NCBI GenBank assembly: GCA_902795965.1
Contig: CADBNI010000029.1
Coordinates: 5,067-69,066, forward strand
DNA: 64,000 nt
Direction of reading: 5' to 3'
Origin: an uncultured bacterium
GTDB taxonomy: Bacteria > Cyanobacteriota > Vampirovibrionia > Gastranaerophilales > Gastranaerophilaceae
In this document: one piece after another, positions 5,884 to 50,642 of the stretch
How the letters are laid out: every line of letters starts with the position of its first letter
How positions within the stretch are numbered: the first letter of the stretch is position 1
Notes under the pieces: model-generated
Seen by the model: only the letters and a program-made list of their open reading frames with translations
Database searches by the model: none
Told to the model about the DNA's origin: nothing
Program-made: the position numbers and the translations under genes

Positions 5884-5937
5884 GTGCGCTATGCGCACCA
5901 TAAAGAACTTTTCGCCTTTCACTTCTCACGTTTCACT
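5884..5937. repeat. Short palindrome GTGCGCTATGCGCAC plus single heptamer arm (TTTCACN-like x4)
   Basis: Palindrome at 5884-5898; tttcgcc-tttcact-tctcacg-tttcact at 5910-5937. Confidence 0.65.
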
Positions 5938-21350: not shown

Positions 21351-22502
21351 TTAAGTTTTGAGTACCGCTTTAATAGCCTCAATCATGCCTGTTTCGTCAG
21401 CGATATTTTTGCCTGCGATATCAAATGCCGTTCCGTGTCCGGGAGAAGTTCTTATTATATCAAGACCTATCGTCATATTAACTGTTTTGTCACCCGCAAC
21501 GATTTTTATCGGGATTAGTCCCTGATCGTGGTAATTGGCGATATAGCAATCGTATTTAGAGGTATGGAGGTATGGAGGCATAGAGGTATAGCTATTATCA
21601 GTTTGCTGTTCTTGTGAAGTTTTATCAATATTACTACTATTAAATAGCCTTACCTCCAGCCCTCCAGCCCTCCAGCCCTCCATATATTCCCTCGCCGCTC
21701 CTACAAACAACGTATCCGCAGGCAAGGGGCTTGTGATATTTATACCTTTTGCGCGCAATTCTTCAACCGCAGGCTGCAAAATCTCGATTTCCTCACGTCC
21801 TAATATCCCGTCCTCTCCCGAATGCGGATTAAACCCGCAAAGCGCAAATTTCGGGTCATTTATTCCGAGATGCGAAACAAAAAACTCTTTCAAATTACTA
21901 ATTTTTTCTACAACCATATCTTTGGTCAAATTTATCTCTTTCAAAGGAACATGTCTTGTTAAAAGTAAAACCCTGAAATTCCCTGCTACAAAAAGCATTT
22001 CCGCCAACTGATTATCATGCGCAAGGTATTTCTGCAAAATTTCCGTTTGTCCGTTGAAATTATGCCCTGCCAAATGCATTGCGTTTTTTGCAACAGGCGC
22101 GGTTACAATAGCTTTTGCCCCAATCTCGCAAGCTAATTTTACCGACCGAAACGAAAATTCCCCAGCCTCTTTGGTGACTTTCCCAGGCTCAATTTCTGCA
22201 TTATAGGGAATTTCGAGCAGTTCATAAGCGGAGGTATGGAGGTATAGAGGTATAGAGGTATAGCTATTACCGGTTTGTGGTTCATGTTGAATTTCACCAA
22301 CACAACTGTTATTAAATTGCCATACATCCATACCTCCAGACATCCATACATCCGAATAATACTCCAAAATCTTTCTATTCGAAATAATCACAACTTTATC
22401 GGGCGGAAGATTTAGTTTTGCCAAAGCCTTAATCGTAATTTCCGCGCCGATACCGTTCGGGTCGCCCGTTGTAATAACAATTTTGTCAGAATATTTACTC
22501 AT
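21351..22502 (-). CDS. pdxA: PdxA-family dehydrogenase (probably four-carbon acid sugar PdxA2) with two in-frame repeat insertions
   Basis: GDPNGIGAE, NPHSGE, PADTLF, YHDQGLIPIK, RTSPGHGTAFDIAG; adjacent to a DUF1537 kinase. Confidence 0.92.
   Translation of the reverse strand: MSKYSDKIVITTGDPNGIGAEITIKALAKLNLPPDKVVIISNRKILEYYSDVWMSGGMDVWQFNNSCVGEIQHEPQTGNSYTSIPLYLHTSAYELLEIPYNAEIEPGKVTKEAGEFSFRSVKLACEIGAKAIVTAPVAKNAMHLAGHNFNGQTEILQKYLAHDNQLAEMLFVAGNFRVLLLTRHVPLKEINLTKDMVVEKISNLKEFFVSHLGINDPKFALCGFNPHSGEDGILGREEIEILQPAVEELRAKGINITSPLPADTLFVGAAREYMEGWRAGGLEVRLFNSSNIDKTSQEQQTDNSYTSMPPYLHTSKYDCYIANYHDQGLIPIKIVAGDKTVNMTIGLDIIRTSPGHGTAFDIAGKNIADETGMIEAIKAVLKT
21559..21680. repeat. 122-bp palindromic element with octamer tandem arms, in-frame in pdxA
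   Basis: 4x GAGG(T/C)AT(G/A) + GCTATT + 46 nt + AATAGC + CTTACCTC and 3x CAGCCCTC. Confidence 0.88.
22231..22352. repeat. Second 122-bp palindromic octamer-arm element, in-frame in pdxA
   Basis: 4x GAGGTAT(G/A) + GCTATT + 46 nt + AATTGC + 4x CA(T/G)AC(A/C)TC. Confidence 0.88.
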
Positions 22503-23814
22503 TCAATCCGCCATGAGATTCAAAATATTTTAAAATATCAATAAGCGTATTTGCACCGCCCAAATTACCCGATTTTGTCACAATCCATTGTGCGTTATGA
22601 TCAAGCGAAAGTGCTATTGCAGGCGCAACTTCATCTACAAGCTGAAGCTGATAAGCTCCGATGGCAGAACAACATTTGTAAGAAGTCTCACCGCCGAGAG
22701 TAATCAAAATTGCCTCTTTTTTCTCCAAAACCCTCTTTGTCAAATCGGAAAGAAAATCCGTAATAACATTTGCCAAATTAGCTTTTGTTAATTCCGCATT
22801 CAAAGAATCGTCCGAAAATCCGTCAAAATCAGCAATTAATTTTGAAGTATGCACAACAACGGTATTGTCAAAATTGAGGTTTGAAACGACTCTGTCAACC
22901 AATTCGTCCGTTACGCCGTTCAAAACGGTTTTTAAATCAAAACTAATTGAAAGCACGTTTTCAAATTCGTCACTGTTTTCAAGCTGTTCAATCTGTTTTG
23001 CCGTAATTTGCGTGGCACTTCCCGACACAATAAATTTCGGCAAAGTCGGAAAAGTTTTTGTAATATGTTCACTTTCCAAATCAGCAAGCCAATATTCACT
23101 CAAAGCCTGTGCAAAAGATGCAGTTCCGGTAGGAAGAATTTTATTATCGGTTTTTTTGATGGCAAGTGCGATTTGTTCAATATCAACGGTAGAAACCGCA
23201 TCACAAACGATAAGTTTTTTGCCCTCAGCAATCAATTCTTTTATTCGCTGTAAAATCGGACCTGCCCCTTTCATAACGGTTTTCAGTTCAATTTGCCCGA
23301 CAATATTTTTATATTCATCAGAAAGTTGATTTCTCAACAATGTAGGCAGGTGAGATTCCGCAATGGGAGAATGCGGATCGCGCGCCATTTCGGTTCTTTC
23401 AATGGGTACTCCGCGCAAAAGATGATATCCGCCGACAGTAGTCCTTGTTTCTGCAGGAAATGCGGGAACTATAACCGACGCTTCGTAGTCAAATACCGAA
23501 AGTATTGCCAAAACTTCAACCGCAATGTTTCCTCTGATTGTGGAATCTATTTTCTTATAAATAAAATCAGGATTAATTTTTTCCGCAAACATCTTTGCGG
23601 TTTTAACAACTTTATCAAAAGCCGATTGCGAATCAATATTTCTTGATTCTGTTGATATCGCCCAAGTTTGAGTACCTTTAATATTCAAAGGTTCAATTTC
23701 ATCGGAAAGCAGAATTTGGGTATTAGCACCCTTCAGGTGAAACTGAAGTGCCGTATCGTTAGCTCCCGTCAAATCATCGGCAATAATTCCCGCTATATTT
23801 GAATTAATTATCAT
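22495..23814 (-). CDS. Four-carbon acid sugar kinase family (DUF1537)
   Basis: IADDLTGANDT, YKKIDSTIRGN, LGGETS, VTKSGNLG. Confidence 0.92.
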   Translation of the reverse strand: MIINSNIAGIIADDLTGANDTALQFHLKGANTQILLSDEIEPLNIKGTQTWAISTESRNIDSQSAFDKVVKTAKMFAEKINPDFIYKKIDSTIRGNIAVEVLAILSVFDYEASVIVPAFPAETRTTVGGYHLLRGVPIERTEMARDPHSPIAESHLPTLLRNQLSDEYKNIVGQIELKTVMKGAGPILQRIKELIAEGKKLIVCDAVSTVDIEQIALAIKKTDNKILPTGTASFAQALSEYWLADLESEHITKTFPTLPKFIVSGSATQITAKQIEQLENSDEFENVLSISFDLKTVLNGVTDELVDRVVSNLNFDNTVVVHTSKLIADFDGFSDDSLNAELTKANLANVITDFLSDLTKRVLEKKEAILITLGGETSYKCCSAIGAYQLQLVDEVAPAIALSLDHNAQWIVTKSGNLGGANTLIDILKYFESHGGLNE

Positions 23815-33255: not shown

Positions 33256-34179
33256 TTACCAGGGATAATCCTTGCTGATTTTCCAACCGTCATGCATTAT
33301 TTTTGCTGCGCAATATACTCCGCTACCGTTGCATTCCCCGTTTGGATAGCCATACGGGACAATTTGTCCGTTAGCCGTTCTTATAAAGAAAAACACATCT
33401 CTTCCCAGTTTATTTGGTTGTTTAGCTCCATTCAAATCAACTGTCATATATCCGCCGGCATTACCCGGTTTTGCCATGATTTGGAGTAAAGTCCCGTCCC
33501 CCAATATCATAGTAATTCTACTTCCGCTTCCTGTTATATCGTGGCCGTGAACATTCCCGTTAAGATCATAAAATGGCTTGATTGAGGTATAACCGCAATC
33601 ACTCGGAGAAGTACATAATTTTGCAGATTTTAAATAAGGTTTCCAATAAATTCTATAATAATTAGAAATACCGATATCATCAATAGCCTGCCAATTTACA
33701 TACTCTCCGTTTTCTGCTTCCGACAATTTCATTGCCTGATTTAATATTGAATAAAACTTTTTTAATTGTGTTACGGTTTTATGTTTTTGATAATTTGTAA
33801 TCATAACAGGCATGGTTATCGCCGCGACAACTCCGATAATGCCAAGGGTAATGAGGACTTCAGCGAGGGTAAAGGCGGATTTCTTGGCAGACTTTCCGTC
33901 TTTCACGTCATTCTGAACTTGTTTCAGAATCTCGTCTTGAGATGCTGAATCGCGGAGGTCAATCCGACGTTCAGCATGACGGAATGTCTGTTGTGAGAAG
34001 TGAAATGTGAAAGGTGAGAAGTTCTTTAAGGGTAATATTGAACCCCTCACCCGCATTTGTACGGCTCCGCCTACAAATGCTCCCTCTCCCCGTTGGGGCG
34101 AGGGATGATTTTTTGTAAATTCTTTACTCACTCCACTCACCTCACTAACTTCACTCACTCTCTTATTATCTTTGTTCAT
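33256..34179 (-). CDS. Type IV pilin-like protein with 102-aa repeat-derived leader (cassette 3)
   Basis: KSA|FTLAEVLITLGIIGVVAA after the leader; ends CAAKIMHDGWKISKDYPW; RBS AGGAGG. Confidence 0.88.
   Translation of the reverse strand: MNKDNKRVSEVSEVSGVSKEFTKNHPSPQRGEGAFVGGAVQMRVRGSILPLKNFSPFTFHFSQQTFRHAERRIDLRDSASQDEILKQVQNDVKDGKSAKKSAFTLAEVLITLGIIGVVAAITMPVMITNYQKHKTVTQLKKFYSILNQAMKLSEAENGEYVNWQAIDDIGISNYYRIYWKPYLKSAKLCTSPSDCGYTSIKPFYDLNGNVHGHDITGSGSRITMILGDGTLLQIMAKPGNAGGYMTVDLNGAKQPNKLGRDVFFFIRTANGQIVPYGYPNGECNGSGVYCAAKIMHDGWKISKDYPW
33906..34161. repeat. Stack of four repeat types within the pilin leader
   Basis: GTCA-REP pair 33906-33981; heptamers 33993-34020; CCCCTCACCC..CCCTCTCCC..GAGGG palindrome 34043-34104; nonamers 34126-34161. 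Confidence 0.8.
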
Positions 34180-40280: not shown

Positions 40281-40490
40281 ATGGATATAAGAAACGATAT
40301 TAAATATTGCATGGCACGCGAAGCCGTCACATTCAAACGATTAGCCGAATTAATGACCGAAAAAACAGGGAAGAAATATACAATCAACAGCCTTTCGGGA
40401 AAACTTATCCGTGAAAGCATTACACTTAAAGAAGCATTACAAGTATTAGAGATTTTAGGATACGACCTCAATATTAATAAACGCCCATAA
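40281..40490 (+). CDS. Small Cro-like HTH protein (cassette 4)
   Basis: IKYCMAREAVTFKRLAELMTEK...NSLSGKLIRESITLKEALQVLEILGYDL; homologous to 29272-29478. Confidence 0.78.
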   Translation: MDIRNDIKYCMAREAVTFKRLAELMTEKTGKKYTINSLSGKLIRESITLKEALQVLEILGYDLNINKRP

Positions 40491-41427
40491 TATCCGATTT
40501 TATCTGCTCTTTTAATTCGTCAAGGGAATTGAATCTGCGTTCGGGACGGAGCATTTTTTCAAAACTAACCTCAATCGTTTCTCCGTATATATCTTCATCA
40601 AAATCAAGAATATGGACCTCTAATATTGCTTTGCTTCCGCTGACCGTAGGTCGAACACCGTAATTTGCAACGGCTTTATAATAGGTATAGAGGCATGGAG
40701 GCATAGAGGTATGGCTATTATCAGTAGTTTCTTGCTTAGTTACCTTGTCTGCGGTCTGAACTTCTGCGGCATACACTCCGTAAGGTAAATTTATCAACTC
40801 AGACGGATATTCAAGATTTGCAGTCCTAAAACCTATCGTCCTGCCGATTTGATTACCCTTGACAACCTCTCCGCGTACAAAAAATTTATAACCAAGCATA
40901 CTGTTCGCTTTTTCAATCTTACCTTCCGACAAAAATTTGCGAATTGCAGTACTGCTGATTATTTCCGATTCATATTTTTTGGGAGGCAGTTCAAAATATT
41001 CATAGCCGAACTTTTTCGCATTATCTTTCAAAAACTTCGGATTTCCCGATTTTTTGTACCCGAAATTGTGATTCCAACCCGTAGATATGGCAACCGGAGT
41101 GAAATTCTTTACCAAACAATCTTTCAAATAATCCTCAGCCGTCAACCCCGAAATTTCTTCAAAATCCAACTCATAAAGATAATCAACTCCAAACTCTGCA
41201 ATTTTTTCCTCACGCATTTCGCGAGTCAAAATATACTTAGGACAAACACCCCAAAAATAACAACAAGGATGATCCCTAAACGTAATAACAGCCGACTTTG
41301 TACCGTTTTGTTTTGCATAATCAACGGCACTTTTTATAACCGCCTGATGTCCCGAATGAACTCCGTCAAAAAAACCGAGCGCAAGCGATAAATTGGGATT
41401 TTTATTTAATTCTGTAAATATTTGCAT
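40474..41427 (-). CDS. ribF: Bifunctional riboflavin kinase/FAD synthetase with in-frame repeat insertion
   Basis: GFFDGVHSGH, ISSTAIR, GRTIGFRTANL, LEVHILDF..DIYGE. Confidence 0.95.
   Translation of the reverse strand: MQIFTELNKNPNLSLALGFFDGVHSGHQAVIKSAVDYAKQNGTKSAVITFRDHPCCYFWGVCPKYILTREMREEKIAEFGVDYLYELDFEEISGLTAEDYLKDCLVKNFTPVAISTGWNHNFGYKKSGNPKFLKDNAKKFGYEYFELPPKKYESEIISSTAIRKFLSEGKIEKANSMLGYKFFVRGEVVKGNQIGRTIGFRTANLEYPSELINLPYGVYAAEVQTADKVTKQETTDNSHTSMPPCLYTYYKAVANYGVRPTVSGSKAILEVHILDFDEDIYGETIEVSFEKMLRPERRFNSLDELKEQIKSDIMGVY
40682..40745. repeat. Half copy of the octamer-arm element, in-frame in ribF
   Basis: taggtata-gaggcatg-gaggcata-gaggtatg-gctatt-atcagt; encodes TDNSHTSMPPCLYT. 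Confidence 0.8.
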
Positions 41428-50558: not shown

Positions 50559-50572
50559 AAAATACCTTTTAT

Positions 50573-50642
50573 GAGATTCTTCGGCTTACGTCATCCTGAG
50601 CAAAGCGAAGGATCTCATATGATTTTTCAGCCTCAGAATGAC
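50573..50642. repeat. Nested GTCA-tagged REP-like elements
   Basis: Outer gagattcttcggct...agcctcagaatgac enclosing cgtcatcctgagcaaagcgaaggatct (50589-50615). Confidence 0.75.

Follow-up and report, generated by a model that had tools for sequence, protein, structure and literature searches.

Octamer-armed palindromic repeats lie in frame within pdxA and other housekeeping genes of a gut Gastranaerophilales bacterium

Introduction

How does a conserved metabolic enzyme come to carry two long, palindrome-like repeats inside its reading frame? The question is raised by a pdxA-family gene in a 64,000-nt stretch of contig CADBNI010000029.1 (positions 5,067 to 69,066; hereafter the window, meaning the whole stretch analysed). 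The window belongs to a 1.8-Mb, 36% G+C, 85-contig metagenome-assembled genome (MAG) of a gut Gastranaerophilales bacterium (Melainabacteria/Vampirovibrionia), designated G000 in all comparisons. We propose that the two pdxA segments are probably copies of a non-autonomous, selfish palindromic repeat resembling the Rickettsia palindromic elements (RPE) and kept in genes only where it can be translated.

Results

Two elements of one plan in pdxA

The host gene and the two elements are laid out as follows, in positions of the window.

21351-22502, minus strand: PdxA-family (PdxA2-like) dehydrogenase gene, host of both elements, a single 383-aa open reading frame (ORF) matching Pfam PF04166 at 7.7e-81
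21559-21680, minus strand: copy A, 122 nt long, at site 2, flanked by PADTLF and YDCYIANYHDQG, encoding ...EGWRAGGLEVRLFNSSNIDKTSQEQQTDNSYTSMPPYLHTS
21559-21590, plus strand: first arm of copy A, octamers GAGGTATG GAGGTATG GAGGCATA GAGGTATA (GAGGTATR type)
21559-21590, minus strand: the 3' arm of copy A as read on the coding strand, TATACCTC TATGCCTC CATACCTC CATACCTC
21591-21596, GCTATT of copy A; 21597-21642, its 46-nt spacer; 21643-21648, its AATAGC
21591-21648, minus strand: core of copy A, the coding strand reading GCTATTTAATAG...CTGATAATAGC
21649-21680, plus strand: second arm of copy A, CTTACCTC and then CAGCCCTC three times
21649-21680, minus strand: the 5' arm of copy A as read on the coding strand, GGAGGGCT three times and GGAGGTAA, an octamer "flavour" unlike that of the 3' arm
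22231-22352, minus strand: copy B (site 1), 122 nt, in place of the GGLNKD/GKLDKD loop of relatives, encoding DVWMSGGMDVWQFNNSCVGEIQHEPQTGNSYTSIPLYLHTS
22231-22262 and 22321-22352: arms of copy B, four GAGGTATR octamers and four inverse octamers, respectively
22263-22268, GCTATT of copy B; 22269-22314, its 46-nt spacer; 22315-22320, its AATTGC

Both copies follow the same general plan, namely four GAGGTATR octamers, GCTATT, 46 nt, AAT[AT]GC, and four inverse octamers, and they are 77% identical over 128 nt. Their starts lie 672 nt apart (3 x 224), so that they share one orientation and one reading frame, and the peptides they encode end in QTDNSYTSMPPYLHTS and QTGNSYTSIPLYLHTS, with NSYTSMPPYLHTSK and TSQEQQTDNSYTSMPPYLHTSK among the insert stretches. 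This base-by-base reading agrees with a first-pass annotation of the window, which had reported two 122-bp elements of the same architecture, orientation, and frame within pdxA, and the 383-aa translation indeed places copy A between the PADTLF and YHDQG motifs, as had been stated. The palindromic octamer arms described there hold only in part: inverted arms are present, but their complementarity reaches just 75% in copy A and 80% in copy B, and copy A mixes unlike octamers, GAGGTATR in one arm and CAGCCCTC in the other.

The element length of 122 nt is not divisible by three, and the former loops are shorter by approximately 11 and 17 nt, a loss that brings the reading frame back into register. 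The gain of ~41 aa per copy given at first has to be lowered accordingly: the net addition is ~37 codons at site 1 (relative to the nearest insert-free allele) and ~35 codons at site 2 (relative to the common 14- to 16-aa loop form), 11 to 17 nt of original loop being gone.

A repeat family dispersed through the genome

The octamer pattern has 10 matches in the window, compared with zero across 100 shuffles, and the matches beyond copies A and B belong to a one-armed third copy in ribF, which encodes TDNSHTSMPPCLYTY within the riboflavin kinase domain.

40474-41427, minus strand: ribF, with Pfam Flavokinase and FAD_syn
40682-40724, minus strand: third copy, a half-element in ribF, four octamers and GCTATTATCAG, the second arm absent

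The strict expression (GAGG[TC]AT[AG]){3,}GCTATT, suggested beforehand for a genome-wide search, returned just five hits, and a looser scan for consecutive GAGGTATR-type octamers returned 55 loci; BLAST with either pdxA copy placed an arm together with the core on over 25 contigs. Full copies also occur in the ribulose-phosphate 3-epimerase gene rpe (contig C20), in a radical-SAM gene (C59), and in intergenic positions on C31 and C43, with spacers homologous to those of copies A and B (GCTATTTAAT(A/G)...GTGAAAT.CAACA...(C/T)(T/C)GATAATAGC); the spacer of copy A in particular is homologous to those in rpe, one radical-SAM gene, and C31. The initial suggestion that length, and not sequence, is constrained is not supported as worded: the other copies span ~60 to 122 nt (82 to 128 nt as measured with short flanks, the shorter ones ~60 to 95 nt), many loci are half-elements with a single arm, the spacers are homologous, and the 3' arm is almost always four YATACCTC octamers. 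The constraint on copies in genes is to have an open frame, a single orientation, and a net length divisible by three.

The most faithfully recurring unit is the half-element, (A/T)AATAGC followed by four YATACCTC octamers, and a full element consists of two inverted halves flanking a homologous 40- to 46-nt spacer. The number of units per arm has its mode at four and practically never exceeds five, in a genome that carries 58 period-7 and 44 period-8 arrays of at least four units.

A second hairpin type is present as well, with arms of four to five tandem heptamers (NNGTGAA ... TTCACNN), usually as inverted pairs 60 to 90 nt apart. It is found in the window at 1827-1854, 5908-5935, and 33990-34017, and as pairs at C14 7511-7545/7607-7641 and C32 14646-14680/14740-14774; the order of variant units is kept between copies of the heptamer array, so that whole arrays are inherited as one unit. 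In addition, many contigs end in a composite repeat, a TTTTGGGGCTAAAGCCCCAAAA hairpin followed by two to four octamers and then GACAAAAGTACGATAAGTAAGGTAAGTGTG (C68 1-45, C81 1-30, C84 1-40, C13 1-30, C17 185-220, C60 1-25, C3 8630-8679, and C8 225-260). Such composite repeats are what fragments the assembly, and the stretches between genes are patchworks made from several kinds of small repeat module.

Copies in genes keep one strand and one frame

Within stop-free frames of at least 250 aa lie 21 of the 55 loci, and 14 of these 21 sit in 10 Pfam-confirmed genes:

PdxA: two copies
RibF: one copy
MurF-type Mur ligase: two copies
Ribulose-phosphate 3-epimerase (rpe): one copy
Radical-SAM proteins: one copy in each of two genes
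NAD-dependent DNA ligase (ligA): one copy
Mfd: two copies
DnaX: one copy
CCA/poly(A) polymerase-family enzyme (cca): two copies

Other copies fall in two prepilin leader peptides, over the opening codons of RmlD, and a short distance upstream of UvrC and of a large secreted protein. Intergenic copies outnumber genic ones, about one-third of the loci lying inside ORFs.

The same element strand is the coding strand in all 14 verified genic copies, each of which is open in the host frame and has a net length divisible by three. In every case the 3' half gives (D/G)N(S/N)[HY]TSIPPYLHTS, and the 5' half gives GGMDVWQFNN or a variant of it. The intergenic copies on C31 and C43, by comparison, have stops in all three sense frames. 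The YATACCTC strand is itself stop-free in all three frames, and its complement GAGGTATAG gives TAG. This pattern is the one expected if insertion lands anywhere and the genic survivors are the translatable ones.

Beside these genic copies, the half-elements at C8 12401-12437 and C46 23950-23986 lie within long N-terminal extensions of the two prepilin-type genes and directly precede the KK(A/T)AFTLAEVL processing motif, so that the insert peptide would leave with the leader. At C38 17008-17442, two inverted octamer arrays around ~370 nt extend from upstream of rmlD into it, and the ribosome-binding site, the start codon, and the first ~16 codons (MNNTNSIPPDLQTSIPR) are apparently supplied by the element. 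Another family, of 74 to 78 nt, is read in frame as ..HSEA.K.(I/D)M.SFA.L.MT..EESH at C20 26906-26983 (rpe), C46 28235-28308 (mfd), and C49 1665-1738, and is intergenic at 50569-50642 of the window; it counts ~10 longer copies (22 BLAST hits with short fragments), three of them in ORFs of 288 to 1175 aa.

Relatives have empty or differently filled sites

The pdxA DNA of 27 other genomes from the same genus and order was aligned and translated (28 with G000); occupancy of site 1 is based on these 28 genomes and on an alignment of 15 proteins, and loop lengths at site 2 on 80 species-level relatives, whose records come from human and animal guts.

At site 1, the octamer element is found in G000 only among the 28 genomes. 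Two relatives (L002 = G014 and L011 = G016) have there an unrelated ~27-nt palindrome, AGTCATTCTGAACTTGTTTCAGAATCT, read as SHSELVSES, and the same palindrome (SHSELVSES or CHSELVSES) occupies site 1 in P0003, P0004, P0008, P0013, P0028, and P0039; the same permissive loop is thus used by unrelated repeats. A word nearly identical to AGTCATTCTGAACTTGTTTCAGAATCT also occurs in the intergenic repeats of G000 (C84, around position 140).

At site 2, the loop is minimal in 12 congeners (..KALN|YDCC..) and 14 to 22 aa long in several, and G014 and the G017/G002/G007/G012 group carry octamer-armed inserts of other sequence (TTGCCATC, TTGTCCTC). Across the 80 species, the loop measures 5 aa in 34, 14 to 16 aa in 25, 22 aa in 3, and 30 to 41 aa in 14, and the PdxA proteins of other genera, together with the solved Escherichia coli and Salmonella structures, align straight across the site. 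The occupied G012 and the minimal-loop G005 are well-supported sisters (99/91).

Single proteins complete the series. Both sites are empty in P0014 (295 aa); in P0007, site 1 is empty and site 2 holds a different octamer hairpin (ACTATTCA). The sister species P0002 (391 aa) has the 3' half of site 1 in common (ATAAATAGC and CATACCTC x4) with a different 5' part, and at site 2 a heptamer-armed hairpin (TGGAAAG x4/CTTTCAA x4). Site 1 of P0002 (L030 10100-10400) can also be described as four in-frame modules, GCTAAGCA x3, a CCTTCCCCGGACGGGGAAGG palindrome, CCTTTCAA x4, and CATACCTC x4. In other host genes, both MurF inserts are absent from nearly all relatives and the Rpe insert from ~20 of them, and rpe of G014 retains only an orthologous 5' arm and remnants of the core. 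Ancestral loops, which had been named as the finding that would overturn the insertion reading, are not what the orthologues have: related species and distant taxa alike possess empty sites, and the pdxA inserts are, as far as alignment can tell, insertions.

The host enzyme and the predicted structure of the inserts

The PdxA signature motifs are complete in the host protein, as judged from the translated alignment of relatives, and dN/dS (the ratio of nonsynonymous to synonymous substitution rates) is 0.075 to 0.081 over 295 shared codons against three relatives, on account of which the gene is, by this sequence measure, functional and under strong purifying selection.

AlphaFold2, run on PdxA with a 60-sequence alignment, gave a model confidence (pLDDT) of 85 to 95 for the core around both sites, and of 25 to 38, without secondary structure, for residues 58 to 88 (copy B) and 280 to 313 (copy A). 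Both inserts are accordingly predicted to be disordered excursions from a confident core, in answer to the earlier suggestion that structure prediction be used to place them.

The best PDB matches of the host protein are 2hi1 (PdxA2) and 6e85 (D-threonate 4-phosphate dehydrogenase), and its neighbour is a kinase gene:

22495-23814, upstream of pdxA: DUF1537-type (SBD_N/NBD_C) four-carbon acid sugar kinase gene, its stop overlapped by pdxA

The PdxA2-like gene and the DUF1537 kinase gene are coupled across 21351-23814. Instead of making pyridoxal phosphate by the classical pathway, the host enzyme may therefore serve catabolism or salvage, with D-threonate phosphate or 4-hydroxythreonate phosphate as its substrate.

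Discussion

A translatable repeat and the points against it

We propose a model in which the element, or its halves, would spread through the genome by some trans-acting activity. Most insertions into genes would be lethal, and the genic copies now seen would be the survivors, those that landed in the stop-free orientation and frame, in a permissive loop, linker, or leader peptide, and with a net length that is a multiple of three. Surviving copies would be transcribed and translated with the host protein, each adding a disordered loop of 35 to 45 residues in which Ser, Thr, Pro, and Tyr abound (...QFNN...DNS[HY]TSIPPYLHTS), with strong purifying selection still acting on the core of the enzyme. 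The first-pass annotation had spoken of a coding-compatible mobile micro-element. The coding compatibility is borne out by an element that is dispersed and sits in frame in 10 or more housekeeping genes unrelated to one another; its mobility we infer from this distribution, and the selfish or neutral character of the copies and their mode of spread are likewise part of the model.

Several observations weigh against this explanation. The nearest insert-free relatives are just 80 to 86% identical in DNA, so that the exact boundaries, and the choice between insertion and loss at site 2, are approximate; orthologue alignment, proposed at the outset for defining boundaries and target duplications, delivered the empty sites and only approximate boundaries. 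No consistent target-site duplication was seen when the flanks of 12 copies were compared with the closest empty alleles, and a CG dinucleotide stands on both sides of two to three copies in the same comparison, in which the nearest empty sites are 80 to 86% identical. The arms of copy A, rpe, and C59, made of unlike octamers, pair poorly and do not fit a one-piece hairpin transposon. Frame 1 of the 3' half is open as well and yet goes unused, all 13 of 13 copies being in frame 0, an exclusive use for which a selection filter accounts only partly. Finally, the Y1/RAYT transposase (PF01797) was considered as a mobiliser and rejected, there being no match in G000 or in G014, the relative richest in the element.

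On the side of carriers, the Y1/RAYT matches in other relatives are unlinked to the presence of the element. No transposase-sized ORF lies between inverted arrays among the 55 loci, in an assembly that breaks at repeats and in which a parent element could be missed. A phage carrier was likewise discarded, the viral contigs holding no exact match to the core-plus-arm word; metagenome contigs yielded two chance matches to that word and one small related contig.

Octamer flavours and possible rewriting of the arms

The octamers differ from species to species. The word ATAGC + (NNNNCNTC)x3 occurs 18 times in G000, 38 times in G014, 22 times in G013, and 1 to 7 times in five further congeners; 16 more congeners lack it, it matches once across the 12 other genera sampled, and a reversed-pattern control gave one hit. 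The YATACCTC version is found in this species only (41 genomes), G014, G007, and G012 using YTGNCNTC and G013 using YTAYCYTC. Moreover, copy A, rpe, and C59 join an "old-flavour" 5' arm (GGAGGGCT, GAAGNCAG) to a YATACCTC 3' arm, and the 5' arm of rpe is orthologous to that of G014.

Because of these species-specific flavours, the mixed-flavour arms, and the differently flavoured four-unit hairpins found in one pdxA loop of sister species, it may be asked whether the arms are arrays of about four 7- to 8-nt units that are actively written or renewed in place, for instance by directional gene conversion or by templated addition of repeats at breaks. We regard this as unlikely. At site 2, repeated insertion into one of few permissive loops is simpler than in-place rewriting of the arms, since an unrelated small palindrome uses site 1 in other species. 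The simplest account of the mixed copies is that half-elements insert beside older ones or replace parts of them, and that renewal inside genes is open to the stop-free strand alone. If rewriting were true, it would represent repeat dynamics not described for bacterial MITE (miniature transposable element with inverted repeats), REP, or RPE families, and the YATACCTC strand, open in all frames, would be a built-in means of staying translatable.

Other explanations

One possibility is that the inserts have been domesticated, either as mRNA regulators (RNase III or pausing sites, GGAGG/CCUCC) or as functional lineage-specific surface loops. The arms are indeed Shine-Dalgarno-like GGAGG runs paired with CCUCC, the 3' half at site 1 is kept in the sister species P0002, and one frame is used throughout although a second is open. 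Nevertheless, enzymes of unrelated function carry the same peptide, as do leader peptides and linkers; disorder is predicted for the inserts; their sequence and length change rapidly between sister species, with many lineages losing them; and intergenic copies are the majority. Altogether, domestication appears quite unlikely.

Alternatively, the hairpins could be excised from the mRNA in an intron-like manner or bypassed by a ribosomal "hop," thus never reaching the protein. On the mRNA strand, the hairpins are very stable, at -54.9 kcal/mol for copy A (z = -6.4) and -53.3 kcal/mol for copy B (z = -7.5), compared with -44.6 and -40.4 kcal/mol on the antisense strand, and they would bring the element ends together; the length of 122 nt, not a multiple of three, also suits removal. 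But neither excision nor bypass needs an open frame or a net multiple of three, both of which characterize all 14 verified genic copies, whereas intergenic ones carry stops, and several genic copies are half-elements or have non-complementary arms with which such a hairpin is impossible. The greater stability of the sense strand comes from G.U pairs where TATGG replaces TATAG in the 5' arm, i.e., from the avoidance of TAG stop codons, and a selected RNA structure was rejected on this ground. No intron or ribozyme family of Rfam matches; with Rfam 15 at a permissive E-value, only sub-threshold look-alikes of microRNA hairpins appeared (35 bits against a gathering score of 97). We therefore hold excision or bypass to be very unlikely.

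It is highly improbable that the segments are immobile, locally hypervariable loops that slipping of short tandem repeats has extended in place. Tandem 8-mers do make up the arms, both PdxA loops vary in length among the 80 species, and other lineages have 7-mer or different 8-mer arrays at site 2, as slippage would have it, but slippage cannot bring the same core (GCTATTTAAT...GATAATAGC), a homologous spacer, and the same octamers to 10 genes without relation to one another and to dozens of positions between genes, nor would it cap the arrays at four to five units instead of spreading their lengths.

An assembly or binning artefact that wrongly spliced repeats into the gene, conceivable for an 85-contig MAG with many contigs ending in these very repeats, can practically be dismissed, given that four or more other contigs, among them one from an independent Logan assembly of ERR3275101, encode exactly this 383-aa protein, that a 98%-identical fragment has the same site-2 insert, and that joining errors made at random would not leave a single gene open in frame at two places.

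What the elements mean

If the insertion and survival of translatable repeats is the right explanation, a free-living gut lineage of non-photosynthetic Cyanobacteriota would display the same phenomenon as the RPE on a comparable scale, with at least two to three repeat families read through in pdxA, ribF, murF, ligA, dnaX, mfd, rpe, cca, and other genes. Dozens of sister species with empty, occupied, and differently occupied sites make this evolution tractable, and the entry of repeats into proteins, the loops that tolerate them, their rate of decay, and the seeding of new peptide segments could all be measured there. On the practical side, gene models and orthologue alignments become inflated and distorted by the inserts, which also break Gastranaerophilales MAG assemblies and should be masked or annotated.

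Comparison with known systems

Searches of the literature turned up no account of such elements in Melainabacteria. Within the same broad phylum, Elhai and colleagues (2008, Genome Res 18:1484) reportedly described STRR heptamer arrays and small dispersed repeats (SDR) of cyanobacteria. Going by description only, these share with the present element tandem units of 7 to 8 nt, nested modular repeats, and hairpin potential, and they differ in their unit sequences and in that two fixed-length inverted arms are here tolerated in essential coding sequence.

REP and REPIN elements, mobilised by RAYT (Y1) transposases (PMC3116915, PMC3733652), are likewise short, numerous, non-autonomous, and hairpin forming, and occur as singlets and inverted doublets. 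Their unit is an imperfect palindrome of 20 to 40 nt. Unlike them, the present element comes with no RAYT gene and no GTAG/CGTC tag, its half-unit is not itself a palindrome, and about a third of its loci fall inside genes, REPs being extragenic.

Bacterial MITEs (Correia, ERIC/IRU, Nezha, and others), among which intragenic in-frame ERIC copies have been reported (PMC10969869), resemble it in small size, high copy number, occasional in-frame fusion to ORFs, and inverted terminal arms, here of 32 nt. In contrast, neither a consistent target-site duplication (flanks of 12 copies) nor a parent insertion sequence (IS) with matching ends (55 loci) was found here, and the termini are tandem-octamer arrays and not unique terminal inverted repeats. 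Of the traits of an IS-derived MITE, only the inverted repeats could be recognised.

The closest likeness in behaviour is to RPE-1 to RPE-10, which, in the account of Ogata et al. (2000, Science 290:347) as relayed in PMC10969869, are inserted in frame in unrelated metabolic genes. Both are dispersed palindromic repeats, of 100 to 150 bp in RPE and of 122 nt on more than 25 contigs here; both lie in frame in many unrelated housekeeping genes, in one orientation, with a conserved peptide and intact host enzymes; and for neither is a transposase or an obvious target duplication known. RPE sit at fold-compatible sites, in surface loops; for the present inserts AlphaFold2 gives a prediction only, of unstructured segments on a confident core. 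By analogy, then, the element works like RPE, to which it is likened by behaviour and not as a family member, common descent not being expected. The hosts differ, a gut member of the Cyanobacteriota here and an intracellular alphaproteobacterium for RPE, and what is new in the present element is the arms of four tandem octamers whose sequence is specific to the lineage and differs by species, the separable half-elements that occur alone, and the fact that further repeat families, too, occupy these permissive loops.

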